DNA of 32,000 bases from Hymenobacter metallilatus. Its GTDB lineage: Bacteria; Bacteroidota; Bacteroidia; Cytophagales; Hymenobacteraceae. Numbering within the stretch: position 1 is the first letter of the stretch; each line of letters begins with the position of its first letter. Below are positions 1,195 through 30,475 of the stretch, piece by piece. The notes under the pieces are model-generated. The model was not told the origin of the DNA, did not search any database, and saw only the letters and a program-made list of their open reading frames with translations. The position numbers and the translations under genes were made by a program. The DNA lies in NCBI RefSeq assembly GCF_003944705.1, contig NZ_RWIS01000002.1, forward strand, positions 462,243-494,242, read 5' to 3'.

Positions 1195-2265
1195 CTATAG
1201 CTCCAGCCCGTCCAGCAGTTCAACGTAGCCCTGCACGCCGGCCCGGATTTCACTGAGTAGGATGTACTCGTCGGGGGTATGGGAGCGGGCTGAGTCGCCG
1301 GGGCCGATTTTGATGGTGGTAAACGGCATCATGCTCTGGTCCGACAGCGTAACGGAACCAAAGGTACGCCGGCCTAAGGCAAGGCCCCGTTGCACCAGCG
1401 GATGGGTGAGGGCAATGCGGGAGGAGTTGAGGTGAGTGGAGCGGGGCGTGACGTTGGAAGAAACGTGACGGCGCACCAGCTCTACTACTTCCAGGTTGGA
1501 GTACAACTCATTGGTGCGCACATCTACCACAAAGATGCACTGGTCGGGCACCACGTTATGCTGGGACCCGGCCTGAATTTGGGTGACAGTCATTTTTACG
1601 GGGCCTAGTAGTTCAGAAACCAACGGAAAGCGAAAGGTTTCGAACCACCGGATGTCGGCTACGGCTTTGTACAGCGCGTTTTCGCCTTCCTCGCGGGCGG
1701 CGTGACCGGTGCGGCCGTGGGCCACGCAATCCAGCACCACCAAGCCCTTCTCGGCCACCGCCAGGTCCATCTGTGTCGGCTCGCCCACAATGCCCAGGTG
1801 GATGGTGGGCAGTAGCGGCAGCAGCCGGCGGATGCCATCTGCGCCCGACACTTCCTCCTCGGCCGTTATAGCGCAGATGAGGTTGAATGGCGGCGCAGTA
1901 GGCTGCTGCTCAAAGTAGAGAAACGTTGCCAGCAGGCACACTGCCGAGGCTCCGGCGTCGTTGCTGCCCAGGCCGGTCAGCCGGTCACCCTCTACCACGG
2001 CCCCGAAGGGGGCGTAGGTCCAGGTGCTGCCGGGCTTCACGGTGTCGTGGTGGGAGTTGAGCAGGATGGTAGGCTTGTTGGGGTCGAAATGCCTCGACAG
2101 GGCCCACACGTTATTGGCGTCGCGCTGAGGCTGCGCGCCATGCCGTTCCAGAAAAGCCACCAACAAGTCGGCCGTACCACTTTCCTCACGCGAGAAAGAG
2201 GGAGTTTGAATAAGTTGCCGCAGCAAGGCAATGGCATCGGTGGTGAGGTGCTCTAGCTCCGGCAT
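1195..2265 (-). CDS. argE: M20-family deacylase (acetyl- or succinyl-ornithine deacylase, ArgE-like)
   Basis: 356-aa ORF with an ATG start. Shows M20 peptidase features (LLNSHHDTVKPG, GLGSNDAGAS, AEEE, GP..SHTPDEY). Lies between argB and argH and overlaps the argB stop by 13 nt. Confidence 0.85.
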   Translation of the reverse strand: MPELEHLTTDAIALLRQLIQTPSFSREESGTADLLVAFLERHGAQPQRDANNVWALSRHFDPNKPTILLNSHHDTVKPGSTWTYAPFGAVVEGDRLTGLGSNDAGASAVCLLATFLYFEQQPTAPPFNLICAITAEEEVSGADGIRRLLPLLPTIHLGIVGEPTQMDLAVAEKGLVVLDCVAHGRTGHAAREEGENALYKAVADIRWFETFRFPLVSELLGPVKMTVTQIQAGSQHNVVPDQCIFVVDVRTNELYSNLEVVELVRRHVSSNVTPRSTHLNSSRIALTHPLVQRGLALGRRTFGSVTLSDQSMMPFTTIKIGPGDSARSHTPDEYILLSEIRAGVQGYVELLDGLEL

Positions 2266-3035
2266 AGCACAGTTTTTACGGGCTCATTGATGCGCAGCGC
2301 GTGCTCGATAACCACCTGCTCCACTCCGGCTTCCAGGGCGGCAAAGGCATTGTCCAATTTGGGTACCATACCCGCCGCAATGCTGCCTGTGGCCTTCAGC
2401 TCCTGGTACTCAGTGGCGGTTAGCTGCGGAATGACGGAGGCCTCGTCGTGCACGTCGCGGAGCACGCCGTCTTTCTCGAAGCAAAAGTGCAGCTCCACCG
2501 CATACCGCTCGGCCAGGGCGCGGGCCAGGGTGCTGGCAATGGTATCGGCATTGGTGTTGAGCAGTTGTCCCTGGCCGTCGTGGGTAATGGCGCAGAACAC
2601 GGGCAGCAAGCCGTTTTTCAGCAGCTGATGCAGTAAATCCGTGTTTACCGCGTTGGCGGGAAGGTCGCCTACAAACCCGTAGTCGATATCCTTTACCGGG
2701 CGCTTCACCGCCCGGATGGCGTTGCCATCGGCCCCGGATAAGCCCAACGCATTTACACCTTCTGCCTGTAACAGGCTTACCATCTGCTTGTTGGTTTTGC
2801 CGGCGTAGAACATCGTGACGATGTCGAGGGTGGCTGCATCGGTGATGCGGCGGCCCTGCACCAGTTGCGGCTCAATACCCAGGTCGCGCAGCATCTGGCT
2901 GGCGCCTTTGCCGCCCCCGTGCACCAATAGCTTGTGGCCCGGTACATGGGTCAGCGCCCGCAGGAACTGTCGCAACTGGGCGTCATCATCAATGATGCCG
3001 CCCCCGATTTTAAAAATTTTCAGGCCTTCACGCAT
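2253..3035 (-). CDS. argB: acetylglutamate kinase
   Basis: 260-aa ORF with amino-acid-kinase features (KIGGGIIDD, LVHGGG, NTNADT). First gene of the minus-strand arg operon. Confidence 0.9.
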   Translation of the reverse strand: MREGLKIFKIGGGIIDDDAQLRQFLRALTHVPGHKLLVHGGGKGASQMLRDLGIEPQLVQGRRITDAATLDIVTMFYAGKTNKQMVSLLQAEGVNALGLSGADGNAIRAVKRPVKDIDYGFVGDLPANAVNTDLLHQLLKNGLLPVFCAITHDGQGQLLNTNADTIASTLARALAERYAVELHFCFEKDGVLRDVHDEASVIPQLTATEYQELKATGSIAAGMVPKLDNAFAALEAGVEQVVIEHALRINEPVKTVLCRS

Positions 3036-4238: not shown

Positions 4239-4353
4239 AGAACGTCATGCTGAGCTTGCCGAAGCATCTCTACCGCTTCGTGCTCAAGAGTGAGTTAGCA
4301 AGAGTGAGTTAGCCAGAGGTAGAGATGCTTCGGCAAGCTCAGCATGACGTTCT
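4239..4353. repeat. complete V1 nested-palindrome element (36-nt arms, 43-nt spacer)
   Basis: Left arm 4239-4274 is agaacgtcatgctgagcttgccgaagcatctctacc. Right arm 4318-4353 is its exact reverse complement. The spacer holds a tandem 14-mer, aagagtgagttagc x2, at 4286-4313. Confidence 0.9.
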
Positions 4354-4375
4354 TTTTCCCATAACATCAGCACGC

Positions 4376-4407
4376 GAGATGCTTCGGCAAGCTGAGCATG
4401 ACGTTCT
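4376..4407. repeat. solo V1 right arm
   Basis: gagatgcttcggcaagctgagcatgacgttct has one mismatch to the consensus right arm. It lies 19 nt upstream of the argG ATG. Confidence 0.85.
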
Positions 4408-4425
4408 CATAATCTTCAGCACTCC

Positions 4426-5616
4426 ATGAAAAAAAAGGTAGTTCTCGCCTATAGCGGCGGCTTGGATACGTCTTATTGCGTGGTGTACCTAACCCGCGAG
4501 CTGGGTCTGGAAGTCCACACGGTGATTGTCAACTCGGGCGGCTTCTCGCCAGAGGAACTGGCCGGTATCGAAAAGCGTGCCTACGAAATGGGCTCCACGC
4601 GCCACGAGGTGATTGACGTAACCGAGCGGTTCTACCAGCAGTGCCTGCGCTACCTGCTGGCCGGCAACGTGCTCAAAAACGACACTTACCCGTTGAGCGT
4701 GAGTGCCGAGCGGATGTTTCAGAGCCTGGCGCTGGCCGAGTACGCCCGCGAGAACAAGGCCGACTACATTGCCCACGGCAGCACCGGTGCCGGCAACGAC
4801 CAAGTGCGCTTCGACGTGGCCTTCTCGGTGATTTCGCCCGACACCGAAATCATCACGCCCATCCGCGACCTAGGCCTTTCGCGCCAGCAGGAAATTGAGT
4901 ATTTGCAAGCCAACGGCGTGGAGATGAGCTGGGAAAAAGCCAAATACTCTATCAACAAGGGTATCTGGGGCACCAGCGTGGGCGGCGTGGAAACCCTCAC
5001 CTCCCGCCAGGGCCTGCCCGAGTCGGCCTGGCCGACTCAGCTCAGCAAGCACGAGCCCCAGGAAATCAGCATCACCTTTGAGAAAGGCGAGCCGGTGGCT
5101 TTAAACGGCGAAGCAATGAAGCCGGTGGACCTGATTGTGGCTCTCAACGAGCTGGCCGGCCAGTACGCCATCGGCCGCGACACCCACGTGGGCGACACGA
5201 TTCTGGGCATCAAGGGCCGGGTGGGCTTCGAGGCCCCCGCGCCGCTGATTCTCATCAAAGGCCACCACTTGCTGGAAAAGCACACGTCCAGCCGCTGGCA
5301 GCTGCTGCACAAGGACTACATCGCCAACTGGTACGGCACGCTGCTGCACGAGGCCCAGTACCTCGACCCGGTGATGCGCGACATGGAAGCCTTCCTGGAA
5401 TCGTCGCAGGAGCGGGTGTCGGGCACGGTGTACGTGACGTTGAAGCCGTATCAGTTCGAGCTGCTGGGTGTGGAGTCGCCGTTTGATATGATGCAGTCGA
5501 AGGTGGCTACCTACGGCGAGGAAAACAACGCTTGGGACTCGCGCGACGCGAAAGGCTTCATCAAAATCTTCAGCAACCAGCTGCGGATTCACGGCTCGTT
5601 CAACGATGAAAATTAA
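4426..5616 (+). CDS. argG: argininosuccinate synthase
   Basis: 396 aa, beginning MKKKVVLAYSGGLDTS (N-type ATP pyrophosphatase motif), with HGSTGAGNDQVRF. Confidence 0.95.
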   Translation: MKKKVVLAYSGGLDTSYCVVYLTRELGLEVHTVIVNSGGFSPEELAGIEKRAYEMGSTRHEVIDVTERFYQQCLRYLLAGNVLKNDTYPLSVSAERMFQSLALAEYARENKADYIAHGSTGAGNDQVRFDVAFSVISPDTEIITPIRDLGLSRQQEIEYLQANGVEMSWEKAKYSINKGIWGTSVGGVETLTSRQGLPESAWPTQLSKHEPQEISITFEKGEPVALNGEAMKPVDLIVALNELAGQYAIGRDTHVGDTILGIKGRVGFEAPAPLILIKGHHLLEKHTSSRWQLLHKDYIANWYGTLLHEAQYLDPVMRDMEAFLESSQERVSGTVYVTLKPYQFELLGVESPFDMMQSKVATYGEENNAWDSRDAKGFIKIFSNQLRIHGSFNDEN

Positions 5617-6586
5617 GGCTGGCATCGTCGGCGGGGCCGGCTACACGGCGGGGGAGCTGCTGCGGATTCTGCTGCACCACGAGTTTGTGGAGCTGGGCGG
5701 CATCGTGAGTTCCTCCAACGCTGGCAACCCCATCCACCAAGTGCACGACGATCTGGTGGGCGAGACGGAGCTGCGTTTCACGGCTGAGCTGCAGGGCGAC
5801 GAGGACGTGGTGTTTCTGTGCCTGGGCCACGGCAACTCCAAGGCCTGGCTGACCCAGCACCCGATGCCCGAAACTACCCACGTCATCGACCTGAGCAACG
5901 ACTTCCGCCTGGAAGCCGACGCCGAGTTTGCGGGCCGGGAGTTTGTGTACGGGCTGCCGGAGCTGAACAAAAGCCAAATCCAGCAGGCCCAGAGCATTGC
6001 CAACCCCGGCTGCTTCGCCACGGCCATTCAGCTGGCGCTGCTGCCGCTGGCCCAGGCCGGCAAGCTCCAGAACGACGTGCACGTATCGGCCATTACGGGC
6101 AGCACGGGCGCGGGGCAGAGCCTCTCGGAAACGGTGCATTTCTCGTGGCGCACCAACAACGTGTCCATCTACAAGCCCTTCACGCACCAGCATCTGGGCG
6201 AGATAGGGGAGAGCCTGGCGCAGCTGCAGCACGCGCTGGACGTAGATATCCACTTCATCCCGTACCGCGGCAACTTCACCCGGGGCATCTTCGCCAGCGT
6301 CTACACGCCGTCGGATTTGACCCAGGACGAGGCCCGCGCGCTGTACCAGCAGTTCTACCAGGACGCCCCGTTTACCACGGTATCGGACAAGGAAGTACAT
6401 CTGAAGCAGGTTGTTAATACCAACAAGTGCCTGCTGCACGTGCAGAAACTCGGCAAGCAGTTGCTCATCACCTCGGTTATCGATAACCTGGTGAAAGGTG
6501 CTTCCGGCCAAGCCGTGCAGAACATGAACCTCATCTTCGCCCTGCCCGAAACGACGGGGCTAGGGTTGAAGGCCGGGCTGTTTTAG
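5606..6586 (+). CDS. argC: N-acyl-gamma-glutamyl-phosphate reductase
   Basis: 326 aa, with GIVGGAGYTAGELLRIL (NAD-binding) and the active-site segment ANPGCFAT. Overlaps the argG stop by 11 nt. Confidence 0.95.
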   Translation: MKIKAGIVGGAGYTAGELLRILLHHEFVELGGIVSSSNAGNPIHQVHDDLVGETELRFTAELQGDEDVVFLCLGHGNSKAWLTQHPMPETTHVIDLSNDFRLEADAEFAGREFVYGLPELNKSQIQQAQSIANPGCFATAIQLALLPLAQAGKLQNDVHVSAITGSTGAGQSLSETVHFSWRTNNVSIYKPFTHQHLGEIGESLAQLQHALDVDIHFIPYRGNFTRGIFASVYTPSDLTQDEARALYQQFYQDAPFTTVSDKEVHLKQVVNTNKCLLHVQKLGKQLLITSVIDNLVKGASGQAVQNMNLIFALPETTGLGLKAGLF

Positions 6587-6588
6587 GC

Positions 6589-6686
6589 AGAGCGTCATGC
6601 TGAGCTTGCCGAAGCATCTCTACCGCTTCGCAAGACCATTGATTACCCTCGGTAGAGATGCTTCGGCAAGCTCAGCATGACGTTCT
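6589..6686. repeat. complete V1 nested-palindrome element (36-nt arms, 26-nt spacer)
   Basis: Left arm 6589-6624 has one a>g change. Right arm 6651-6686 matches consensus. The element starts 3 nt after the argC stop. Confidence 0.9.
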
Positions 6687-6746
6687 GTTAGGATGTTCTG
6701 TAGGCTTGCTTCTAATTTCTAACCTCTCAGCTCTCACATCTATACC

Positions 6747-7886
6747 ATGGAGCTTTTCAACGTGTATCCGCTCGTCAACATCACGCCCGTGAAGGCGCTG
6801 GGGGCGAAACTCTGGGACGACAAAGGCCAGGAGTACCTGGATTTTTACGGCGGGCACGCCGTTATCAGCATCGGCCACAGCCACCCGCACTACGTGCAGC
6901 GCCTCACCGAGCAACTCGGCAACATCGGCTTCTACTCCAACTCGGTGCAGATTCCGATTCAACGGGAGCTGGCCGAGAAGCTGGGCCGGGTATCGGGCTA
7001 CGAGGATTACACGCTGTTTCTGTGCAACTCCGGGGCCGAGGCCAACGAGAATGCGCTGAAGCTGGCTTCCTTCCACACCGGGAAGAAGCGCGTCATAGCA
7101 TTCCGGGGCGCGTTCCACGGCCGCACCTCGGGCGCGGTAGCCGCCACCGACAACCCCAAAATCGTGGCGCCCTTCAACGCCGACCACCACATCAGCTTCC
7201 TGGAGTACGATCTGGCGGCGGTGGAGCAGGTGCTGCAGGGCGGCGACGTGTGCGGGGTCATCATCGAGCCCATCCAGGGCGTGGGCGGTATCATCATGCC
7301 TTCTGATGAATTCCTGCAAGGCTTGGCTGCGCTGACCAAACAATATGGCGCGCTGCTGCTGGCCGATGAGGTGCAGAGCGGTTACGGCCGCAGCGGCAGG
7401 TTCTTCGCCCACCAGCACGCCGGTATCCGGCCCGACGTTATTTCGGTGGCCAAGGGCATGGGCAACGGCTTCCCCATCGGCGGCATCCTGATTGCGCCCG
7501 AGCTGAAGGCGTCCTACGGGTTGCTGGGTACCACGTTTGGCGGCAACCACTTGGCCTGCGCTGCCGCGCTGGCCGTGCTGGAAGTTATTGAGCAGGAAAA
7601 CCTGGTGCAGCACGCCGCCGAGCTGGGCGACTACCTGCGCACGGAGTTGGAAGCCCACGCCGGGGCCGAGGAAATCCGGGGCCGGGGCCTGATGGTGGGC
7701 ATCAAGTACGATTTCCCCATCAAGGACCTGCGCGACCAGCTGCTCTCGGAGCACCACATCTTCGTGGGCAACGCCTCCGACCCCACGGTGCTGCGCCTGC
7801 TGCCCCCGCTGAATATCACCAAGGCCGAGGTAGACCGGTTTTTGCAGGCGCTGTACGCATTAATTCCGGCCGAAGTGAAAAAGTAA
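6747..7886 (+). CDS. argD: acyl-ornithine aminotransferase (class-III PLP aminotransferase)
   Basis: 379 aa, with NSGAEANE, ADEVQSGYGRSG and SVAKGMGNGFP (PLP lysine region). Confidence 0.9.
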   Translation: MELFNVYPLVNITPVKALGAKLWDDKGQEYLDFYGGHAVISIGHSHPHYVQRLTEQLGNIGFYSNSVQIPIQRELAEKLGRVSGYEDYTLFLCNSGAEANENALKLASFHTGKKRVIAFRGAFHGRTSGAVAATDNPKIVAPFNADHHISFLEYDLAAVEQVLQGGDVCGVIIEPIQGVGGIIMPSDEFLQGLAALTKQYGALLLADEVQSGYGRSGRFFAHQHAGIRPDVISVAKGMGNGFPIGGILIAPELKASYGLLGTTFGGNHLACAAALAVLEVIEQENLVQHAAELGDYLRTELEAHAGAEEIRGRGLMVGIKYDFPIKDLRDQLLSEHHIFVGNASDPTVLRLLPPLNITKAEVDRFLQALYALIPAEVKK

Positions 7887-8211
7887 ACGACCTGTGGCCT
7901 AACTTGCAGCCCCAATGAGTAGCACCCTGAAGCTCCCGAGCCCCGCTCCCCTTCTGACAAGCTGCCCGCTGCCATTGGTGACTCCTGCGCAGCAACCGGC
8001 CAGTTCTTTCCACGAAAGAACAGCCTCCCCCTTTTCCTTCCAGCAGTTGTGCCCGCCCGACTTCCCGATGCCTGACATCTGGAAGTGGCAGGGTGCGGGA
8101 CCGATTGATTTAGTTTCTTTCTCTCCCGTTTGGCTTACCTCCTTGTTCGGCTGGAATAGACCCCCGGTATTCGGTTCTGTTCCAGCCGAAATTGTATCCG
8201 GGCGGTTCCGA

Positions 8212-8313
8212 CCCCCGGCCCCTCCCCTCCGGGAGAGGGGTGCGTGCCAACAAACAACGACCTCGTTACTGCTGTCTGGCTCCCCCTCTCCCGGAGGGGA
8301 GGGGGCCGGGGGG
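8212..8313. repeat. GC-rich nested inverted repeat in the carA upstream gap
   Basis: Left arm 8212-8240 is cccccggcccctcccctccgggagagggg. Right arm 8282-8313 is ccccctctcccggaggggagggggccgggggg. The arms are near-perfect complements. Each contains a 6-bp mini-hairpin, cccctc-N5-gagggg. Confidence 0.8.
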
Positions 8314-8367
8314 TGGGGTCCACGCAGAAAATCAATCATCAGAGTAAACCCTTTTTCGCATAACAGA

Positions 8368-9453
8368 GTGGAAAACGCTAAATCGGTAAAACTCGTCCTC
8401 GAAGACGGTACTGAAATCCAGGGCCAGTCGTTCGGCGCCTTCACCTCCGCCGCGGGCGAGGTGGTATTCAGCACGGCCATGACCGGCTACCCCGAAAACC
8501 TCACCGATCCGTCCTTCGCCGGGCAGATTCTGGTGCTGACTTACCCCATCGTGGGCAACTACGGCGTGCCGGGCGAGGAGCTGTACGAGTCGATTTCCAA
8601 GATTTTCGAGTCGGACAAGATTCACATTGCCGGCCTGGTAGTCAACTACTACTCCGAGGAGCACAGCCACTGGAACGCCGCCAAAAGCCTGGGCGACTGG
8701 CTGGCCGAGTACAACATCCCCGGCATCTGCGGCGTGGACACGCGCATGCTCACCAAGAAGCTGCGCGAGAAGGGCGCCATGCTCGGCAAGATTGTGGCCG
8801 AGCAGGACGTGCCCCTGCACGACCCCAACCTGGAAAACCTGGTGGCCCAGGTGAGCCCCCAGGGCGTGCAGCACTACGGCACGGGCCAGCACAAAATAGT
8901 GCTGGTAGACTGCGGCACCAAAACCAACATCATCCGCTGCTTCCTGGAGCGCGACGTGGAGCTGATCCGGGTGCCCTGGGACTACGACTTCACCCAGCTC
9001 GACTACGACGGCCTGTTCCTGAGCAACGGCCCCGGCGACCCGAAAATGTGCGTGCCCACCATCGAGCACCTGCAAAAGGCGCTGGAGCAGGACAAGCCCA
9101 TCTTCGGCATCTGCCTGGGTTCCCAGCTCATGGGCCTGGCCGCCGGCGGCGACACGTTCAAGCTCAAGTACGGGCACCGCAGCCACAACCAGCCCGTCAA
9201 GCTCACCGGCACCCAGCGCAGCTACATCACCAGCCAGAACCACGGCTTCGCGGTGGACACGGCCACGCTGCCCGCCGAGTGGGACATGCTGTTCGAAAAC
9301 CTCAACGACGGCACCTGCGAAGGCATCAAGCACAAAACCAAGCCCTTCTTCTCCACCCAGTTCCACCCCGAAGCCGCCGGCGGCCCCCAGGACACGGAGT
9401 TTCTGTTTGATGATTTCTTGAAAGCGGTGGTGGAGTATAAAGCCTCGAAGTAA
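8368..9453 (+). CDS. carA: carbamoyl-phosphate synthase small (glutaminase) subunit
   Basis: CarA similarity starts at ...ENAKSVKLVLEDGTEIQGQSFGA. I place the start at the in-frame GTG at 8368 (361 aa). The GATase triad region GICLGSQL is present. The 151 upstream in-frame codots of the track ORF (7915-8367) are Pro/Ser-rich and run through a repeat. Confidence 0.85.
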   Translation: MENAKSVKLVLEDGTEIQGQSFGAFTSAAGEVVFSTAMTGYPENLTDPSFAGQILVLTYPIVGNYGVPGEELYESISKIFESDKIHIAGLVVNYYSEEHSHWNAAKSLGDWLAEYNIPGICGVDTRMLTKKLREKGAMLGKIVAEQDVPLHDPNLENLVAQVSPQGVQHYGTGQHKIVLVDCGTKTNIIRCFLERDVELIRVPWDYDFTQLDYDGLFLSNGPGDPKMCVPTIEHLQKALEQDKPIFGICLGSQLMGLAAGGDTFKLKYGHRSHNQPVKLTGTQRSYITSQNHGFAVDTATLPAEWDMLFENLNDGTCEGIKHKTKPFFSTQFHPEAAGGPQDTEFLFDDFLKAVVEYKASK

Positions 9454-9455
9454 TC

Positions 9456-9821
9456 ATGAGTACTTGCAAGTTTCGCTTACTCATACCTACGCTAGCGCTG
9501 ATATTTTTGAATGCTGGCTGTAGGCAAGAAGCAAAATTTGATAAGGACAAGTGGTGCTCTATGGGTGATATAGGAAGCTTCCCGTATCGTGAGCAAATGG
9601 TCGATGATTTGGTTACGCATCATCAACTTAAGGGTCTCACTTACCATCAGCTTCTTGATTCACTGGGTGAGCCGTCAAACTATGGCGAGTCTGACGGCAC
9701 ACTTCGGTATCTAATCATGGAGGATTTTGAATCAGATATTGACCCGGTACATGGCAAAACGCTTGACCTGACATTGGGGCTTGATTCTGTTGTAACTGCT
9801 TACAAAGTCACCAAGTGGTAA
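9456..9821 (+). CDS. low-GC small lipoprotein-like protein (possibly a BamE/SmpA_OmlA-like fold)
   Basis: 121 aa. The ATG is 2 nt after the carA stop. Signal peptide ends ...LIFLNAGC. A 60-nt sample I hand-counted is about 40% G+C, against about 60% in carB. Confidence 0.6.
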   Translation: MSTCKFRLLIPTLALIFLNAGCRQEAKFDKDKWCSMGDIGSFPYREQMVDDLVTHHQLKGLTYHQLLDSLGEPSNYGESDGTLRYLIMEDFESDIDPVHGKTLDLTLGLDSVVTAYKVTKW

Positions 9822-9828
9822 GCACCCC

Positions 9829-9874
9829 AGAACGTCATGCTAAGTTTGCCGAATCATCTCTACCATTTCGTTGG
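9829..9874. repeat. degenerate V1 left arm (half of a split palindrome)
   Basis: agaacgtcatgctAagTttgccgaaTcatctctaccAtttcgttgg. All four differences from consensus are G/C to A/T. Its partner is at 10291-10335. Confidence 0.85.
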
Positions 9875-9915
9875 CGAATAAGATTGTAATACTCAAACGT
9901 ACTAGTATACATACC

Positions 9916-10305
9916 ATGCAGTTGAATGGAAAATCATTAAAGAAATGGCTTTTGCTTTTAGTGGCAGGTATAGCCTTTTATTTCTCTTTTGATTTCCTAG
10001 ACGACTTCTTAGATAAGCAGATGTTGGGTGACCACCCAGAAGTCATTCTTGCGGCCAAGTATGGTGCCAAGACTTCTCCGAGAATACTTAGCCACACGGG
10101 AGAAATATTTTCTGAGGAATACAAAATGAATACGCTGGATTCCAAGCAAGACTCGCTTGAACTTGATATCAAGTTAGAAGGCAAGAAGGCAACCGCCATT
10201 ATTAATACGCGTGCAGTGAAGCAAGTATCTGGTATATGGAACATCTACCGTAGCGACACCACATTCACTGAACAGGCACCACAGCTTGGCCCAACGAAGC
10301 GGTAG
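9916..10305 (+). CDS. low-GC hypothetical membrane-anchored protein
   Basis: The track ORF starts at a TTG at 9871, inside the repeat. The first ATG, at 9916 (MQLNGKSLKKWLLLLVAGIAFYFSF...), gives 129 aa with one N-terminal TM helix. The TAG stop lies within the V1 right arm (ggTAGag). No family recognised. Confidence 0.5.
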   Translation: MQLNGKSLKKWLLLLVAGIAFYFSFDFLDDFLDKQMLGDHPEVILAAKYGAKTSPRILSHTGEIFSEEYKMNTLDSKQDSLELDIKLEGKKATAIINTRAVKQVSGIWNIYRSDTTFTEQAPQLGPTKR

Positions 10306-10335
10306 AGATGCTTCGGCAAGCTCAGCATGACGTTC
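10291..10335. repeat. V1 right arm (half of a split palindrome)
   Basis: ccaacgaagcggtagagatgcttcggcaagctcagcatgacgttc. Consensus sequence, complementary to 9829-9874 except at the four degenerate positions. Confidence 0.9.
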
Positions 10336-10379
10336 AGATAAATCCTTTGCCTACGTTCTTTTTGAACATAACCCCCAGA

Positions 10380-13300
10380 ATGGAAAAACCACAGAAAGTT
10401 CTCATCCTCGGTTCCGGCGCCCTCAAAATTGGGGAGGCCGGTGAGTTCGACTACTCCGGTTCGCAGGCCCTCAAGGCGCTGAAAGAGGAAGGCATCCGCA
10501 CCATCCTCATCAACCCCAACATTGCCACCGTGCAGACGTCGGACGACATTGCCGACGACGTGTACTTCCTGCCCGTGACGCCCTACTTCGTGGAGGAAGT
10601 CATCAAGAAGGAGCAGCCCGACGGCATCCTGGTGGCCTTCGGCGGGCAGACGGCCCTGAACTGCGCCGTGGCCCTGTACCGCGCCGGCGTGTTCGAGAAG
10701 TACAACGTGCGCGTGCTCGGCACGCCCGTGCAGAGCATCATCGACACCGAGGACCGCGACATCTTCAAGGAAAAGCTCGACCAGATCGGCGTGCTCACGG
10801 CCCGCAGCGAAGCCGTAACCACGATGGAGGACGCGCTGGCGGCCGCCGAGCGGATTGGCTTCCCCATCATCGTGCGCGCCGCCTTTGCGCTGGGCGGCCT
10901 GGGCAGCGGCTTCGCCAACAACATGGACGAGCTGCGTACCCTGGCCCAGAAATCCTTCTCGACCTCCGACCAGATTCTGGTGGAAGAGTCCTTGAAGGGC
11001 TGGAAAGAGGTGGAGTACGAGGTGGTGCGCGACCAGTTCGACAACTGCATCACGGTCTGCAACATGGAGAACTTCGACCCCATCGGTATCCACACCGGGG
11101 AGAGCATCGTGGTGGCCCCGTCGCAGACGCTGAGCAACCGCGAGTACCACAAGCTGCGCAGCATCGGCATCAAGACCATCCGCCACTTGGGCATCGTGGG
11201 CGAGTGCAACATTCAGTACGCCCTCGACCCGCACTCGGAGGAATACCGCGTGATTGAGGTGAATGCCCGTTTGTCGCGCTCCTCGGCCCTGGCTTCCAAG
11301 GCTACGGGCTACCCGCTGGCCTTCGTGGCCGCCAAGCTGAGCCTGGGCTACTCCCTGGCCGAGCTGAAAAACAGCGTGACGCAGACCACCTCGGCCTTCT
11401 TCGAGCCCTCGCTCGACTACCTGGTGGTAAAGCTGCCGCGCTGGGATTTGAGCAAGTTTGCGGGTGTGCAGCGCCAGATCGGCTCGGCCATGAAGAGCGT
11501 GGGCGAGGTGATGGCCATCGGCAAAACCTTCGAGGAAGCCGTGCAGAAGGGCCTGCGCATGCTCGACACCGGCCGGCGCGGCTTCGTAGCCAACAAGCCC
11601 GAGCCCATCGACCTCGCGGACCTCGACCGGCTGCTGAGCGAACCGAACGAGGAGCGCATCTTCGCCATCAACGAGGCATTCCAGGCCGGCTACGACGTGG
11701 AGCGCGTGTACGAGCTGACGCGCATCGACCGGTGGTTTTTGCAGCGCCTCTACGGTATCTACCAGCTGGGCCTGCAGCTCGGCGAGAAGCGCCAGCAGGG
11801 TGGCCTCGATGCCCTCGACACCGACCTGCTGCGCCAGGCCAAGAAAGCGGGCTTCTCGGACCAGCAGCTGGCCGTGCAGCTGCTCGGGCCGGCCGAGGTG
11901 AAGGCCAACGAAATGCTGGTGCGCGCCCGCCGCAAGGCCCTGGGCGTGCTGCCGGTGGTCAAGCAAATCGACACGCTGGCGGCCGAATTCCCGGCCCAGA
12001 CCAACTACCTCTACCTCACCTACCACGGCACCGAAAACGACCTGGAGCCGGAAACCGACAAGTCGGTGGTGGTGCTGGGCTCGGGCGTGTACCGCATCGG
12101 CTCGTCGGTGGAGTTTGACTGGTGCGGCGTAAACGCGGCCCAGACGGTGAACGAGGAGGGCTACAAGTCCATCATCATCAACTACAACCCCGAAACCGTA
12201 AGCACCGACTACGACGTGTCGGACCGCCTGTACTTCGAGGAATTGAGCTACGAGCGGGTGATGGACATCCTGGACTTTGAGGCGCCGCAGGGCGTAATTC
12301 TGAGCACTGGCGGGCAGATTCCGAACAACATTGCCACCCGCCTCGAAGCCGCCGGCGCGCCCATCCTGGGCACCGCCGCCGCCCGCATCGACGAGGCCGA
12401 AAACCGCCACAAGTTCAGCAGCATCATGGACGAGCTGGGCATTGCCCAACCGCGCTGGAGCGAGCTGACTACGATGGAGGCCATCTACGACTTCGTGAAG
12501 CAGGTGGGCTTCCCGGTGCTGATCCGGCCGAGCTACGTGCTGTCGGGCGCGGCCATGAACGTGGTGTCGAACCCGCAGGAGCTGGAAGAGTACCTGAAGC
12601 TGGCCGTGGAGGTCAGCGCCGAGTACCCGGTGGTGGTGTCGGAGTTCATCCAGGAAGCTAAGGAAATCGAGCTGGACGCGGTGGCCGACAAGGGCGAAAT
12701 CGTGTCGTACGCCATATCGGAGCACGTCGAGTTTGCCGGCGTGCACTCCGGCGACGCCACCATGTACTACCCGCCCCAGCGCGTGTACGTGGGCACGGTA
12801 CGCAAGCTCAAGGTCATTGCCGAGAAGATTGCCCGGCGCTTCGAAATCAGCGGGCCGTTCAACATCCAGTTCCTGGAGAAAAACGGCGCCATCCGCGTCA
12901 TCGAGTGCAACCTGCGCGCCTCGCGTAGCTTCCCCTTCGTGAGCAAGGTATCGGGCCACAACCTGATCAAAAAGGCCACGAAGGTGCTGCTGGGCCAGCA
13001 CGTGGAGCGCGACGCGAGCGAGCTGGTGTACGACCTGCCCTTCGTGGGCGTGAAGGCCTCGCAGTTCTCCTTTACCCGCCTGCAGGGCGCCGACCCGGTG
13101 CTGCGCGTGGACATGACCAGCACCGGCGAAGTGGGCTGCCTGGGCGACACGGCCGAGGAAGCGCTGCTGAAGTCCTTGCTGTCGGTGGGTTACCGCATTC
13201 CGGAGAAGACGGTGCTGATGTCCAGCGGCCCGCTGCTCTCCAAGGTGGCCCTGCTCAGCGCCGCCAAGCTGCTGGTGCAGAAGGATTACACCATTTACGC

Positions 13301-13631
13301 CACCCACGGCACGCACAGCTTCCTGGCCGAAAACGGCGTGGCCAGCACCCTGGTCTACTGGCCCGACGAGCTGCAGGAGCCCAACGCCCTGACCTACCTG
13401 CGCGAGCGGAAAATCGACCTGGTCATCAACATCCCCAAGAACCTGACCAAGGGCGAGCTGGACAACGACTACAAAATCCGCCGCACCGCCGTCGACTTCA
13501 ACATCCCGCTCATCACCAACGCCCGCCTGGCCAAAGCCTTCATCAAGGCCTTCACCACGCTGAAGCTGCAGGATCTGAGCATCAAGAGCTGGAAGGAGTT
13601 CAAGGCGGAAGCCGCGCCGGTAGAGGCGTAG
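10380..13631 (+). CDS. carB: carbamoyl-phosphate synthase large subunit
   Basis: 1083 aa from the ATG at 10380 (MEKPQKVLILGSGALKIGEAGEFDYSGSQA...), with duplicated ATP-grasp halves. The 24 extra N-terminal codons in the track ORF are read-through of the V1 arm (MLRQAQHDV...). Confidence 0.95.
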   Translation: MEKPQKVLILGSGALKIGEAGEFDYSGSQALKALKEEGIRTILINPNIATVQTSDDIADDVYFLPVTPYFVEEVIKKEQPDGILVAFGGQTALNCAVALYRAGVFEKYNVRVLGTPVQSIIDTEDRDIFKEKLDQIGVLTARSEAVTTMEDALAAAERIGFPIIVRAAFALGGLGSGFANNMDELRTLAQKSFSTSDQILVEESLKGWKEVEYEVVRDQFDNCITVCNMENFDPIGIHTGESIVVAPSQTLSNREYHKLRSIGIKTIRHLGIVGECNIQYALDPHSEEYRVIEVNARLSRSSALASKATGYPLAFVAAKLSLGYSLAELKNSVTQTTSAFFEPSLDYLVVKLPRWDLSKFAGVQRQIGSAMKSVGEVMAIGKTFEEAVQKGLRMLDTGRRGFVANKPEPIDLADLDRLLSEPNEERIFAINEAFQAGYDVERVYELTRIDRWFLQRLYGIYQLGLQLGEKRQQGGLDALDTDLLRQAKKAGFSDQQLAVQLLGPAEVKANEMLVRARRKALGVLPVVKQIDTLAAEFPAQTNYLYLTYHGTENDLEPETDKSVVVLGSGVYRIGSSVEFDWCGVNAAQTVNEEGYKSIIINYNPETVSTDYDVSDRLYFEELSYERVMDILDFEAPQGVILSTGGQIPNNIATRLEAAGAPILGTAAARIDEAENRHKFSSIMDELGIAQPRWSELTTMEAIYDFVKQVGFPVLIRPSYVLSGAAMNVVSNPQELEEYLKLAVEVSAEYPVVVSEFIQEAKEIELDAVADKGEIVSYAISEHVEFAGVHSGDATMYYPPQRVYVGTVRKLKVIAEKIARRFEISGPFNIQFLEKNGAIRVIECNLRASRSFPFVSKVSGHNLIKKATKVLLGQHVERDASELVYDLPFVGVKASQFSFTRLQGADPVLRVDMTSTGEVGCLGDTAEEALLKSLLSVGYRIPEKTVLMSSGPLLSKVALLSAAKLLVQKDYTIYATHGTHSFLAENGVASTLVYWPDELQEPNALTYLRERKIDLVINIPKNLTKGELDNDYKIRRTAVDFNIPLITNARLAKAFIKAFTTLKLQDLSIKSWKEFKAEAAPVEA

Positions 13632-13646
13632 TCAGCGGAGTTCATA

Positions 13647-13691
13647 AGAACGTCATGCTGAGCTTGTCGAAGCATCTCTACCGCTTCGTTG
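13647..13691. repeat. V1 left arm carrying a private T variant (outer half of a split palindrome)
   Basis: agaacgtcatgctgagcttgTcgaagcatctctaccgcttcgttg. Its exact partner is at 14644-14684. Confidence 0.9.
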
Positions 13692-13720
13692 TTCGGCATC
13701 GGCGCTGATTGGACAAAGCA

Positions 13721-13823
13721 AGAACGTCATGCTGAGCGAAGCTGAAGCATCTCTACTGATAGTAACTCCTCTCGTGAGGACGACCCCGGTAGAGATGCTT
13801 CAACAAGCTCAGCATGACGTTCT
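13721..13823. repeat. complete variant V1 element nested inside the split palindrome
   Basis: The left arm, 13721-13756, has loop variant gagcGAAGCtga, which contains GCGAAGC at 13736-13742. The right arm, 13788-13823, is ggtagagatgcttcaacaagctcagcatgacgttct. The arms pair except at the mini-loop. Confidence 0.85.
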
Positions 13824-13854
13824 GATTTTCGGCTGTTCTGCGTAACGTAGCCGC

Positions 13855-14145
13855 ATGTACGTCTACATCCTGACTAACCCGACCCAAACTGTGCTCTACA
13901 TCGGCGTCACCAACGACTTGGCCCGCCGCCTCTATGAGCACAGCCAGGGCCGCGGTGACGCGGGCAAGTTCACCGGACGGTACCAAGCGGATTTGCTGGT
14001 GTACTTCGAGCAGTGCCCGGATGCTACGCAGGCTATTGCGCGGGAAAAGCAACTGAAAGGCTGGACGCGGCAGAAGAAGGACGCGCTGATTGCGGCGTTT
14101 AATCCGACGTGGCAGGCTATTGATTTGCAGACGTGGGCGGGGTAA
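13855..14145 (+). CDS. small stand-alone GIY-YIG (URI-domain) nuclease family protein
   Basis: 96 aa: MYVYILTNPTQTVLYIGVTNDLARRLYEH...REKQLKGW. The YILTN...LYIGVTN...R..EH...E pattern is typical of short COG2827-type GIY-YIG proteins. G+C is host-like. Confidence 0.85.
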   Translation: MYVYILTNPTQTVLYIGVTNDLARRLYEHSQGRGDAGKFTGRYQADLLVYFEQCPDATQAIAREKQLKGWTRQKKDALIAAFNPTWQAIDLQTWAG

Positions 14146-14156
14146 ACTAAATACTT

Positions 14157-14642
14157 ATGAATAAGCTATCTGAGCTAAATGACCTTTGGAAAAAGGCAAA
14201 GATTAGAACAGTTGACACTGCAACTGAACAGCAGGTTAGTGAGTTTGAAGCAACTCATAATCTGATTATTCCTCATGATTTACGAGGTTATTTCGTAGCT
14301 GTGAACGGTACCGACAGGTTGCCGGATAATGAGTTTTATACTTTCTGTACGCTTGAGCAATTTCAACCAATCACCAAAGTTTTAGATGCTTGGAAAAACG
14401 GTATACCGAGGCATAGCGACGTGCTTGAGAAAATAGGCAGCCCTCAAAATTGCTTTGTATTTGCGGATTATAGCATCTACCTCTTTGCTTACGCTATCAG
14501 GCTGTACCCTACAGAATCTGCTCAAAATGAAGTTTATGCAATCTGCGGTGGAGAATACAGAATTATAGCCAAGTCGTTTTCCGAATTCATCGACCTGTAT
14601 CTGCAGCAGGCGGATGAACTTACCTTTTGTCTCATCGCCTGA
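14157..14642 (+). CDS. SMI1/KNR4 (SUKH-1 superfamily) protein, immunity-protein-like, low GC
   Basis: 161 aa. The N-terminal segment (...QVSEFEATHNLIIPHDLRGYFVAVNG) and the ...FADY...SFSEFIDLYL segments resemble the SUKH pattern. A 60-nt sample I hand-counted is about 35% G+C. Confidence 0.65.
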   Translation: MNKLSELNDLWKKAKIRTVDTATEQQVSEFEATHNLIIPHDLRGYFVAVNGTDRLPDNEFYTFCTLEQFQPITKVLDAWKNGIPRHSDVLEKIGSPQNCFVFADYSIYLFAYAIRLYPTESAQNEVYAICGGEYRIIAKSFSEFIDLYLQQADELTFCLIA

Positions 14643-14643
14643 G

Positions 14644-14684
14644 CAACGAAGCGGTAGAGATGCTTCGACAAGCTCAGCATGACG
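14644..14684. repeat. V1 right arm carrying the matching private A variant (outer half of a split palindrome)
   Basis: caacgaagcggtagagatgcttcgAcaagctcagcatgacg is the exact reverse complement of 13651-13691. The terminal ttct reappears at 14710-14713 after a 25-nt insertion. Confidence 0.9.
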
Positions 14685-14733
14685 GCCTGACGGCCTTTTC
14701 CGTCTGCCGTTCTGAAATACCGTAGAACACCCC

Positions 14734-16165: not shown

Positions 16166-16201
16166 AAAAGCTCCCGGCACTGCATGTCGGGAGCTTTTTT
16201 T
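16166..16201 (+). terminator. rho-independent terminator between convergent genes
   Basis: Stem agctcccg (16169-16176) pairs with cgggagct (16188-16195), followed by a run of 7 T. A short A-run on the left could serve dinB weakly. Confidence 0.75.
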
Positions 16202-19800: not shown

Positions 19801-20042
19801 AGGGTATGAGGGTGTGGGGGTGTGGGGGTGTGGGGGTAGGAGTTATTAGCCCGTCATTCCGAGCTTGCCGAGGAATCTCGCGTGCTGACGTTGCACTGGT
19901 GACTGTTACGCAGAATGCAGCGGAGCGGAGTGATGCATCTCGCGTGCAGTGCTGATCCACCTCATTGCAACATTAGCCCGTCATTCCTCGGCAAGCTCGG
20001 AATGACGGGCTAATAACTCCTACCCCCGCACCCTCATACCCT
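19801..20042. repeat. composite V2 nested-palindrome element with octamer expansion
   Basis: The left arm, 19801-19876, includes aggagttattagcccgtcattccgagcttgccgaggaat. The right arm, 19983-20042, is its reverse complement and extends to acccccgcaccctcataccct. The left arm has extra gtgtgggg units at 19810-19836. Confidence 0.9.
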
Positions 20043-21996: not shown

Positions 21997-22038
21997 GTCT
22001 GTCATCCGGAGCACTGCTCCGGATGACAGACTTTTTTT
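21997..22038 (+). terminator. strong rho-independent terminator after sppA
   Basis: gtctgtcatccggagc-act-gctccggatgacagac followed by 7 T. Confidence 0.85.
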
Positions 22039-30394: not shown

Positions 30395-30475
30395 CTGTCA
30401 TTCCGAGCGAAGCGAGGAATCTGGGTTATACATCAGGAGTTAGACCCAGATTCCTCGCTTCGCTCGGAATGACAG
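30395..30475. repeat. V3 nested-palindrome element (perfect 32-bp arms, 17-nt loop) between convergent genes
   Basis: ctgtcattccgagcgaagcgaggaatctgggt (30395-30426) and acccagattcctcgcttcgctcggaatgacag (30444-30475). GCGAAGC lies at 30407-30413. Confidence 0.9.

Follow-up and report, generated by a model that had tools for sequence, protein, structure and literature searches.

A Hymenobacter family of CGTC-tagged palindromic repeats clusters in the arginine operon beside a predicted Ssn-type nuclease gene

Results

Repeat arms and genes in the arginine operon

The window, that is, the whole 32,000-nt stretch of Hymenobacter metallilatus DNA analysed here (contig NZ_RWIS01000002.1, positions 462,243 to 494,242), carries a plus-strand arginine operon whose gaps contain eleven arms of one palindromic element, V1. 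Pattern searches of the window recovered all 11 places given for these arms in the preliminary description, with offsets of at most 4 nt, and the arm pattern matched 0 times in 100 shuffled sequences (chance expectation, none). The features are as follows.

4239..4353, hairpin 1 (plus arm 4239-4280, minus arm 4315/4317-4353), between the GNAT-like ORF and argG
4376-4407, minus, third arm, unpaired, 22 nt past hairpin 1; its inner module differs, CTCGCGTGCTGATG
6589..6687, hairpin 2 (plus arm from 6589, minus arm 6650-6687), in the argC/argD gap, beginning 2 nt past the argC stop
9456..9821, plus, low-GC ORF1, 121 aa, GC 0.44, lipoprotein-like N-terminus, no family match
9829..9870, plus, left arm of a wide pair, with 3 core substitutions, beginning 7 nt past the ORF1 stop
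9871..10305, plus, low-GC ORF2, 144 aa, GC 0.42, N-terminal hydrophobic segment, within the arm pair 9829/10336
10291..10336 (pattern match 10295-10336), minus, right arm of the wide pair, immediately 5' of carB
13647..13691, plus, outer left arm, 3' of carB, with the CGCTTCGTTG extension; its partner is the arm at 14644-14688
13721..13826, nested hairpin (plus arm from 13721, minus arm 13787-13826), immediately 5' of the nuclease gene
13855..14145, plus, ssn-like gene for a 96-aa single-domain GIY-YIG nuclease of the UPF0213/Ssn type, between inverted arms
14157..14642, plus, SMI1/KNR4 (SUKH-1) immunity-type ORF, GC 0.41
14644..14688 (pattern match 14647-14688), minus, outer right arm, beginning 2 nt past the SMI1 stop
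19818..20041, V2 relative, CCCGTCATTCCGAGCTTGCCGAGGAAT; its stem changes are compensatory, its outer arms long and G-rich
30395..30475, V3 relative, CTGTCATTCCGAGCGAAGCGAGGAAT, whose 32-nt arms pair perfectly (-68 kcal/mol)

As first described, arms follow the GNAT-like ORF, argC, low-GC ORF1, low-GC ORF2, carB and SMI1, and none lies outside a gap. They begin 2-15 nt past the upstream stop codon, and the stop codon of the ORF at 9871-10305 falls within an arm. Between the outer right arm and the N-acetylornithine carbamoyltransferase gene lie 46 nt. An arm profile found V2 and V3 as the only V1 relatives in the window, in keeping with the earlier statement that no further V1 copy exists; the V1-free part, however, measures 21.5 kb, not 17 kb. 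The 14-nt tandem duplication reported earlier is real and occupies 4285-4318 (2.4 copies) inside the loop of hairpin 1. The 512-aa "carA" ORF is over-extended, with carA homology beginning near 8386. The preliminary description left the GIY-YIG ORF at 13855-14145, which sits between arms, unconnected to the repeats.

Resemblance of the arms to CGTC-tagged REPs

Four segments make up a V1 arm: AGAA, which is conserved, the CGTC tag, a stem-loop beginning AT and a tail, CTCTACCGC, which is also conserved and may or may not include TTCGTTG. Within the stem-loop, ATGCT and AGCAT enclose a tandem G·A, a G-C pair and the loop CTTGC, giving a REP stem of just 5 Watson-Crick pairs plus G·A mismatches. 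CGTCAT is present in 11 of the 11 window arms, and stem triplets vary compensatorily across variants and lineages (GCT/AGC, TCC/GGA, TCT/AGA, CCT/AGG, GCC/GGC and TGC/GCA). Head-to-head arms form palindromes or hairpins of about 100-115 nt; folded as RNA, the pairs have stem lengths of 36-41 bp and energies of -66 to -81 kcal/mol (z -10 to -14), from -80.9 kcal/mol for hairpin 1 to -66.2 kcal/mol for the nested hairpin, whose arm at 13721 is the loop variant GCGAAGCTGA.

The claim that all copies share one polarity relative to transcription turned out to be uninformative: 5 arms are plus and 6 are minus, and a shared polarity says little because a head-to-head pair is identical read from either strand. 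The sole asymmetry is that the upstream arm carries the CGCTTCGTTG extension, and it was not significant (14 versus 6 in co-directional contexts genus-wide). Nor is it strictly true that U-tracts are absent, since TTTTT at 4353-4358 follows the first hairpin.

The proposed analogy with enterobacterial REP/BIME elements was right in kind, as V1 shows the main features of CGTC-tagged REPs, head-to-head dimers included, set out in the survey by Di Nocera et al. (2013, BMC Genomics 14:522, PMC3733652). That class includes dRS3/NIME of Neisseria and RPE-4/6 of Rickettsia; the phylum Bacteroidetes is named among its hosts, and Hymenobacter is not among the genera named outside the Figure 2 list. Like these repeats, V1 has an unpaired CGTC tag (TGTC in V3) and a stem beginning AT, occurs mostly as head-to-head dimers placed 3' of ORFs where neighbouring genes are co-directional or convergent, and has no associated tyrosine transposase. 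It differs from them in its tail (CTC..., not CCA), in a stem that is not a clean 8-9 bp and in dimer partners that are complementary well past the REP unit. We read V1 as a family of CGTC-tagged REPs, alias Ssn-related motifs (SRMs), specific to Hymenobacter, the representative in this genus of a known class. The published degenerate SRM search pattern matched 0 of the 11 V1 arms.

Distribution across the genus

The arm is not specific to the arg operon; it is found across Hymenobacter, mostly as head-to-head pairs (142 pairs versus 45 single arms in the window and 120 loci). Genus-wide, elements lie about 20 nt past stop codons, in co-directional (81), convergent (33) and divergent (11) contexts; these loci were seeded by exact arm matches and their genes called by a crude ORF rule, so that ascertainment bias affects the figures for density and context. 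The arg operon is genuinely enriched, a point that the preliminary description had left to be checked, with 5-6 elements in 10.4 kb against about 0.06 per kb elsewhere in the arm-seeded loci. Among these randomly returned loci, 4 of 120 fell in the arg operon, where about 0.24 were expected. Target-site duplications of 2-8 nt were absent at 114 elements. There was no evidence of recent copying: the inner and loop sequences of same-genome copies nearly all differ, unlike those of typical REPIN or MITE populations.

A predicted cognate nuclease

The 13855-14145 protein matches PF01541 (2e-17), as well as 1zg2 and 1ywl, and shares 44% identity with the Neisseria SsnA homolog (E 2e-22), its Ssn-type placement coming from PF01541 and this homology, not from a direct cd10448 assignment. 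Tyr4, Tyr15, Arg24/25 and Glu64 are conserved, and across 19 ssn orthologs the median pairwise dN/dS is 0.07.

In 80 metagenome loci selected solely by homology to the window GIY-YIG protein (46-92% identity), arms were 39 times as dense near the ORF (4.76 per kb at distances up to 150 nt) as far from it (0.121 per kb at more than 400 nt). Orientation was likewise uneven: the 50 nt downstream of the ORF held 39 minus arms and 1 plus arm, and the 50 nt upstream held 24 plus and 9 minus arms. Locus L121, from a close relative, shows the same layout of hairpin, gene and arm as the window. Beyond the genus, the gene is bracketed by its own CGTC repeats in 8 of 8 proteobacterial and cyanobacterial loci fetched from a plasmid collection (Azospirillum, Novosphingobium, Sinorhizobium, Neisseria, Rhizobium, Planktothrix, Sphingobium and Aeromonas). 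Judged from sequence, the 13855-14145 product is the predicted cognate Ssn-type nuclease of the V1 repeat class.

Among the 26 closest homologs, from the Hymenobacter clade, ssn lies at carA/carB or carB/argF' in 16. The arms plausibly cluster in the arg operon because ssn is usually housed there, the link between cluster and gene position being a correlation.

Low-GC genes between arms

Wide arm pairs enclose ORFs with a GC of 0.38-0.47, against a genome GC of 0.55-0.62; families recognised in this cargo are Imm50 (three times, in relatives) and SMI1 (once, in the window). Comparison of L121 with the window places the SMI1 insertion exactly from the ssn stop codon to the inner end of the right arm. 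SMI1 is missing from L121 and from relatives about 95% identical, and relatives without cargo retain ssn. Contigs of the ~95% identical relatives leave 9610-10023 uncovered, including the 3' part of ORF1, while its 5' part (9456-9609) still shows depth in a bin shared with the carA end. Divergent homologs of ORF2 occupy the same position in loci L016 and L040, arms and a low-GC ORF occur in the argC/argD gap of L016 and L063, and in L130 this gap is just 2 nt long. The alternative suggestion that the elements are recombination sites is nearer to the evidence, as orthologous gaps carry different low-GC genes within the same arms.

Discussion

We consider it likely that the V1 arms are CGTC-tagged REPs, or Ssn-related motifs, with an Ssn partner encoded in the window. 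In the NTS/SsnA system of Neisseria meningitidis, an Ssn nuclease acts with Ssn-related motifs (Chenal et al. 2025, Nat Commun 16:2388, PMC11893778). The SsnA homolog binds the motif only as a hairpin in single-stranded DNA, recognises a single strand, cuts a few nucleotides 5' of the tag and limits integration of motif-bearing transforming DNA (PMC11893778). By analogy, the Hymenobacter enzyme may act likewise on the strand reading AGAACGTCAT, its predicted target being single-stranded DNA with AGAACGTCATGCTGAGCTTGCCGAAGCATCTCTACC; if it cuts that strand, each strand of a head-to-head pair would therefore be cut at its outer edge. Arms may have accumulated near the long-term home of ssn in the arg/car operon, producing the cluster, and arm pairs may delimit a slot for strain-specific turnover of genes such as SMI1/SUKH, Imm50 and unknown low-GC ORFs. 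This turnover would probably proceed by recombination for which the 45-nt arms supply portable homology, or by breakage in the middle of the palindrome.

The likeness to NTS/SsnA extends to a single-domain GIY-YIG protein of 94-96 aa with both Tyr and Glu64 conserved, to inverted hairpin repeats with an oriented (C)GTCAT tag that bracket the gene, and to multi-copy intergenic repeats clustered at particular genes in a "motif-gene-motif" layout. It is a likeness at the sequence level, and both activity and a role in transformation are predictions. Unlike the Neisseria motifs, the V1 stem is AT-rich, is interrupted by tandem G·A and escapes the published SRM pattern; its arms are extended (45-50 conserved nt) and nearly always paired into palindromes of ~100 nt. 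The window ssn also lies inside a biosynthetic operon, and the genes enclosed are immunity-type ORFs, not surface antigens.

A role of the hairpins in mRNA stability is possible. The elements sit within one co-directional gene series, 2-15 nt past stops, prefer gene 3' ends genus-wide and form RNA stems of 36-41 bp (-66 to -81 kcal/mol), none of which scored as a terminator; one canonical terminator, at 16166-16198, ends the series. That they serve in the polycistronic mRNA as 3' protection or processing sites, setting differential arg expression as enterobacterial REP/BIME elements do, is nevertheless improbable. The same operon exists without the element, with GNAT and argG overlapping as TAATG in L016 and argC and argD 2 nt apart in L130, and the elements are thus dispensable for operon function. 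Roughly one copy in four has convergent genes on its two sides, and perfect duplexes of ~40 bp would more likely be RNase III substrates than exonuclease blocks. Moreover, what is conserved, namely the one-sided CGTC tag and the bracketing of ssn, characterises a motif of a single-stranded-DNA nuclease. The activity demonstrated for this class is directed at single-stranded DNA, and SsnA shows no RNA binding (PMC11893778). The very stable RNA hairpins are then a side effect, because operon transcription runs through the arms.

The cargo raises a different question, whether arm pairs are integron-like boundaries of promoterless accessory genes, mainly orphan immunity genes, that are captured and exchanged between arms and expressed from the host operon. 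Integron attC cassettes and the recombinase-associated orphan-immunity arrays of Bacteroidales resemble the window in their promoterless accessory or immunity genes, their imperfect palindromes that fold single-stranded and their use of an outside promoter. At least 12 cargo ORFs lie between or beside arms, all co-oriented with the operon, the same gap holds different cargo in different species, and the cargo includes the three Imm50 genes and the exactly inserted SMI1. We regard this reading as doubtful. Of ~190 elements, 142 are empty hairpins dispersed genome-wide without arrays, the window has no integrase or tyrosine recombinase gene, and each cargo gene lies between the halves of one palindrome, not between complete sites. 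Most cargo ORFs lack a family match, arms adjoin 11 of 30 low-GC genes and 227 of 818 other genes of the sampled loci, just a modest enrichment, and ordinary homologous recombination could account for exchange. That the elements are ordinary MITEs, deletion derivatives of DDE-transposase insertion sequences mobilised in trans, is extremely unlikely: terminal inverted repeats, small size, high copy number and intergenic location would suit such an origin, but the 114 elements lack target-site duplications, copies have no common internal sequence, no transposase lies in the window or beside arms, and the gene consistently found between arms encodes a GIY-YIG nuclease.

Our preferred reading, a REP family with an Ssn partner, also invites comparison with REPIN-RAYT systems, in which GTAG REPs are combined with a domesticated IS200/IS605-type tyrosine transposase. 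The Hymenobacter enzyme is GIY-YIG rather than HUH/Y1, the tag is CGTC rather than GTAG, and the V1 copies do not share spacers, so that replication of whole units is not evident. In both systems, two inverted REPs form a hairpin-capable doublet, no target-site duplication is found, and the enzyme gene, flanked by its own repeats, keeps a fixed genomic position and shows conservation and purifying selection.

Repeat arms in the arginine gene series

A 42-nt consensus (at most 3 mismatches) together with a 27-nt core recovered 10 of the 11 V1 arm places reported in the preliminary description and found 0 matches in 100 shuffles; the eleventh place, at 13721, is a loop variant seen by the inverted-repeat scan and by profile search. 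The profile search revealed no further V1 copy in the 32 kb, and the sole relatives there are V2 and V3. The repeats and the plus-strand genes that they accompany are as follows.

4239-14688, eleven V1 arms
19818-20041, V2 pair
30395-30475, V3 pair
plus strand, GNAT-like ORF
plus strand, argG
plus strand, argC
plus strand, class-III aminotransferase (argD)
homology from ~8386, plus strand, carA
9456-9821, plus strand, low-GC ORF1
9871-10305, plus strand, low-GC ORF2
plus strand, carB
13855-14145, plus strand, 96-aa GIY-YIG ORF (ssn)
14157-14642, plus strand, SMI1/SUKH ORF
plus strand, N-acetylornithine carbamoyltransferase (argF')
16166-16198, canonical terminator of the plus-strand arg series

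The confinement of the arms to the gaps of this series was borne out: every arm lies there, 2-15 nt past the upstream stop codon. The 14-nt duplication in the first loop was also confirmed. Folded as RNA, the pairs form stems of 36-41 bp (-66 to -81 kcal/mol). Two side claims did not hold. A shared polarity of the copies says little for a head-to-head pair, and the sole definable asymmetry, that of the inner module relative to transcription, is 14 versus 6 and not significant; a U-tract was said to be missing, but TTTTT directly follows the first hairpin. A terminator scan of the window called 0 V1 hairpins. No Rfam family matched at gathering thresholds, and permissive thresholds returned generic long-hairpin look-alikes, all below gathering.

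Two observations concern the same genes. A minus-strand M20 peptidase (argE-like) and amino-acid kinase (argB-like) at 1195-3035 are divergent from the plus-strand series, and thus the arginine genes form two divergent units; the minus-strand unit holds no V1 arm. The argD-carA gap (7890-8385) contains another repeat, CCCCCGGCCCCTCCCCTCCGGGAGAGGGG and its complement (inverted repeat 8212-8240 / 8283-8311), at a depth of 240-480 in contigs of relatives versus 10-38 for single-copy sequence, and read-through of this stretch accounts for the 512-aa ORF at 7915-9453, an artefact.

An Ssn-type nuclease gene enclosed by arms

The GIY-YIG ORF, which begins 29 nt past an arm, is enclosed by the arm pair 13647/14688; the surrounding arms are 13647+, 13721+/13787- and 14688-. 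Among the matches listed, three GIY-YIG homologs in genus-wide loci likewise abut arms. PF01541 is the sole domain of the 96-aa protein, which matches UPF0213 structures and is 44% identical to a Neisseria homolog (E 2e-22). Residues Y4, Y15 and E64 are conserved across 19 orthologs, among which the median dN/dS is 0.07. The gene is under strong purifying selection, and its catalytic residues are intact.

The link between CGTC repeats and GIY-YIG genes was already published in 2025 by Chenal et al., who named the family Ssn, likened its architecture to an insertion sequence and proposed domestication (PMC11893778). SsnA of N. meningitidis (94 aa) binds its motif solely as single-stranded DNA, cuts a few nucleotides upstream of the tag, is inactive on duplex DNA and RNA, and lowers transformation by motif-carrying DNA (PMC11893778). 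The window protein has equivalents of the residues mutated in SsnA (Y6, Y17 and E64; PMC11893778), and its gene is flanked on both sides by an inverted hairpin motif. Among published Ssn homologs, an Ssn-related motif is close by in 71% and present on each side in 42% (PMC11893778).

To remove ascertainment bias, 80 metagenome loci were picked solely by homology to the GIY-YIG protein (46-92% identity, GC 0.29-0.66) and scanned with a generic arm pattern, GTCAT-NNN...N'N'N'-AT. Up to 150 nt from the ORF the arm density was 4.76 per kb, 39 times the 0.121 per kb seen more than 400 nt away. Orientation was fixed: within 50 nt downstream of the ORF there were 39 minus arms versus 1 plus arm, and within 50 nt upstream 24 plus versus 9 minus. 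In most loci missed by a strict pattern, the ORF is still surrounded by a CGTC-type inverted repeat. Homologs turned up by protein search of the plasmid collection come from Rhizobium, Sphingobium, Shinella, Sinorhizobium, Neisseria, Azospirillum, Novosphingobium, Aeromonas and Planktothrix; all 8 loci fetched are bracketed by their own CGTC repeats, among them dRS3-type repeats in Neisseria.

The Hymenobacter V1 arm lies outside the published Ssn-related motif pattern, HGTCWYN(0-2)YYVSBRHN(0-5)WNVSBRGN(0-2)RNCYNB (PMC11893778). This pattern matched 0 of the 11 V1 arms, and its one match in the window is inside a gene and at chance level, but it does match the proteobacterial loci L201, L204, L205, L207 and L208; the Hymenobacter repeat is therefore a divergent branch that the published motif search would not have found. 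The published pattern overlooks a whole Bacteroidota branch of the Ssn system. With these comparisons, an abundant genus-wide repeat and a "hypothetical" 96-aa ORF can be assigned to a recently characterised nuclease/motif system.

The gene also keeps its place. Of the 26 closest homologs (67-92% identity), 16 are placed either between carA and carB or in the carB-argF' interval, and 2 others are found 1.6 kb downstream of argF'; ssn is thus a long-term resident of the arg/car operon. Its neighbourhood is usually ordered carA, arm(+), variable low-GC ORF, ssn, arm(-), carB, while the window and its close relative L121 have carB, hairpin, ssn, arm(-), argF'. The arm cluster surrounds ssn in the way that REPs surround RAYT genes; as to cause, this is a correlation. 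Unlike REPIN-RAYT systems, the Hymenobacter elements carry the tag CGTC rather than GTAG and flank a GIY-YIG nuclease gene rather than an HUH/Y1 transposase gene, and no Y1 transposase was found in the window.

Arm anatomy and repeat class

The arm reads AGAA-CGTC-ATGCT-GAGCTTGCCGA-AGCAT-CTCTACCGC, with or without TTCGTTG. The tag is CGTCAT in 11/11 V1 arms, CGTC in V2 and TGTC in V3, and the sequence 3' of CGTC can form a small stem-loop beginning with A-T and T-A pairs. Read from sequence, the putative stem would have 8 positions: five Watson-Crick pairs (ATGCT/AGCAT), then a tandem G·A/A·G and, next to the loop CTTGC, a single G-C pair. Folding of isolated arms was no better than that of shuffles. 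V2 and V3 have ATTCC/GGAAT in place of ATGCT/AGCAT, and other lineages have ATTCT/AGAAT, ATCCT/AGGAT, ATGCC/GGCAT or ATTGC/GCAAT; these variants change compensatorily, and the stem therefore appears to be maintained. The tail CTCTACCGC pairs with the partner arm.

Di Nocera et al. (2013; PMC3733652) describe CGTC-tagged REPs as stem-loops with an unpaired CGTC (or TGTC/CCTC) at one end, a stem of 8-9 bp starting with A-T and T-A, a loop of 4-5 nt and a short unpaired tail of consensus CCA. Most of them form head-to-head dimers downstream of ORFs, where the neighbouring genes are co-directional or convergent, and they "apparently lack a dedicated transposase" (PMC3733652). The anatomy of the Hymenobacter arms matches this description, though not perfectly: the CGTC tag, the head-to-head dimers and the after-ORF sites are shared, and the putative stem would likewise begin with AT; the tail, CTCTACCGC, is base-paired to the partner arm instead of being an unpaired CCA, and the stem contains a tandem G·A. 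Literature searches by repeat sequence, or for Hymenobacter with palindromic repeats, returned solely primers and unrelated papers.

Distribution in the genus

A 31-nt core scan of one genome per species gave at least 120 stretches, almost all from Hymenobacter species and one from Solirubrum. In the window plus 913 kb (the stretches among the matches listed), the profile search found 329 arms: 142 pairs are head to head, with spacers of 7-102 nt (mode 24), 45 arms stand singly, and 8 pairs are wide. In the stretches listed, with genes called by a crude longest-ORF rule, the elements lie between 81 co-directional, 33 convergent and 11 divergent gene pairs, at a median of ~20 nt past the stop codon. 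Since the element is spread over Hymenobacter species in many contexts, it is not specific to the arg operon. Its enrichment there, raised in the preliminary description, was nevertheless upheld: the window has 5-6 elements in 10.4 kb versus 0 in the other 21.5 kb, and 4 arg/car operons (L016, L040, L063 and L091) occur among the at least 120 loci listed versus ~0.24 expected. Elements beyond the seeding one amount to ~0.06 per kb in the sampled loci, a density that rests on arm-seeded loci.

No excess of target-site duplications of 2-8 nt was found at 114 elements. Because of this and the lack of a transposase in the window or beside the arms, a DDE-type MITE was rejected.

None of the public sequencing runs contains this genome, the best containing 0.30 of the sampled words. 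Copy numbers read from contig depth were ambiguous, at ~10x, 30x and 84x the single-copy level in three runs. In the annotation of Hymenobacter assemblies, the arms account for spurious ORFs (MLSLPKHLYRF-type peptides), over-extended start codons and contig breaks. V1 arms also occur on contigs from MAGs labelled Janthinobacterium lividum and Rhodanobacter (L063, L065 and L044); L063 carries a Hymenobacter-type arg operon with 70-80% protein identity to the window, and these contigs are probably mis-binned.

Variable genes between the arms

Between the arms of the eight wide pairs in the window and the stretches listed lie 181-477 nt. In the six widest (324-477 nt) these interiors contain ORFs of 93-145 aa; the GC of the ORFs is 0.38-0.47, that of the genomes 0.55-0.62. 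The other two (181 and 232 nt; GC 0.68 and 0.52) hold just short doubtful ORFs starting inside an arm. All cargo ORFs, that is, those enclosed by or adjoining arms, are co-oriented with the host operon. They include Imm50 three times and, in the window, SMI1/SUKH, while Pfam and NCBIfam gave no match for low-GC ORF1, low-GC ORF2 and seven other cargo ORFs. Imm50 and SMI1/SUKH are immunity families of polymorphic-toxin systems. The content of a given gap varies: between argC and argD the window has an empty hairpin, L016 an Imm50 ORF between arms, L063 an unrelated ORF and L130 no element. In the comparison with L121, SMI1 fits exactly into the interval that separates the ssn stop codon from the inner arm sequence GCAACGAAGCGGTAG, and contigs of ~95% identical relatives leave 9610-10023 and 14164-14577 uncovered and cover ssn. 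One operon combines ssn, empty hairpins and hairpins holding immunity-type genes that vary among close relatives, making it a compact natural test case for two questions left by the Neisseria work, namely the role of Ssn systems outside Neisseria and how the repeats spread.

Could the arm pairs act as carriers? It is conceivable, although we consider it improbable, that the Ssn-motif pair of Hymenobacter carries promoterless accessory genes. Portable homology would be supplied by the two 45-50-nt arms, and cleavage of each single strand by the Ssn nuclease would fall at the pair's outer edge. The arm-gene-arm unit so defined would be exchanged among strains and among hairpin sites. Orphan immunity genes (SUKH, Imm50) would thereby be planted in constitutively transcribed operons such as arg/car, the permanent home of ssn. 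If true, this would be an integron-like cassette system run by a single-stranded-DNA nuclease and not by an integrase. Inner arm modules, such as CGCTTCGTTG, CGCAGTAGTAA and CGCGTGCTGACG, recur in varied combinations, often still complementary, which fits recombination between elements. Low-GC genes overall are just modestly enriched beside arms and the window contains no recombinase, so that an integron-like "cassette" reading is possible but unproven; the dispersed elements also differ from an integron with its IntI, attI and ORF-attC array. Comparison of empty (L016, L130) with filled sites gave no clean insertion boundaries, the filled gaps holding extra unrelated sequence. Apparent "joints" across 13689-14644 are other hairpin copies aligned to the arms and not evidence of excision.

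The hairpins might act in the arg-operon mRNA. Stems of such stability will be present in the transcript, where they may undergo processing. Yet equivalent gaps in relatives lack the element, and it is the features of a single-stranded-DNA motif that are conserved; any RNA effect is therefore treated as secondary. Contigs from runs labelled "RNA?" break at arms, as any assembly would, and are thus uninformative on RNA processing.

Low-GC ORF2 (9871-10305) has divergent homologs (33-37% identity) at the same place just upstream of carB in two other species (L016 1176-1544 and L040 3628-4032), where their GC is 0.50-0.58. The ORF may be a long-standing member of the operon whose place between arms here is accidental, and not imported cargo.

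Related repeats outside the series

The V2 pair (19818-19852, 20007-20041) carries additional long outer arms, in which a G-rich tandem motif, GGGTGTGGGGGTGTGGGGGTGTGGGGGTAGGAG, occurs; its interior of 106 nt includes another partial arm. V3, a perfect palindrome at 30395-30475, lies 19 nt from the 3' end of a minus-strand SbcC/Rad50-like gene (30494-31930). SbcCD is the classic hairpin-cleaving nuclease, and this proximity may be a coincidence. At 21997-22031, GTCTGTCATCCGGAGCA / TGCTCCGGATGACAGAC followed by T7 resembles an intrinsic terminator, yet its ends, GTCAT...ATGAC, are those of the repeat class; in locus L074 (1931-2031) a full V1 hairpin occupies the orthologous gap. Downstream of carB in L040, the closest relative, the region 7340-7600 has no V1 arm and carries four copies of another short repeat, GGAAACCATTGTTT, within hairpin-like units; this is where synteny with the window stops.
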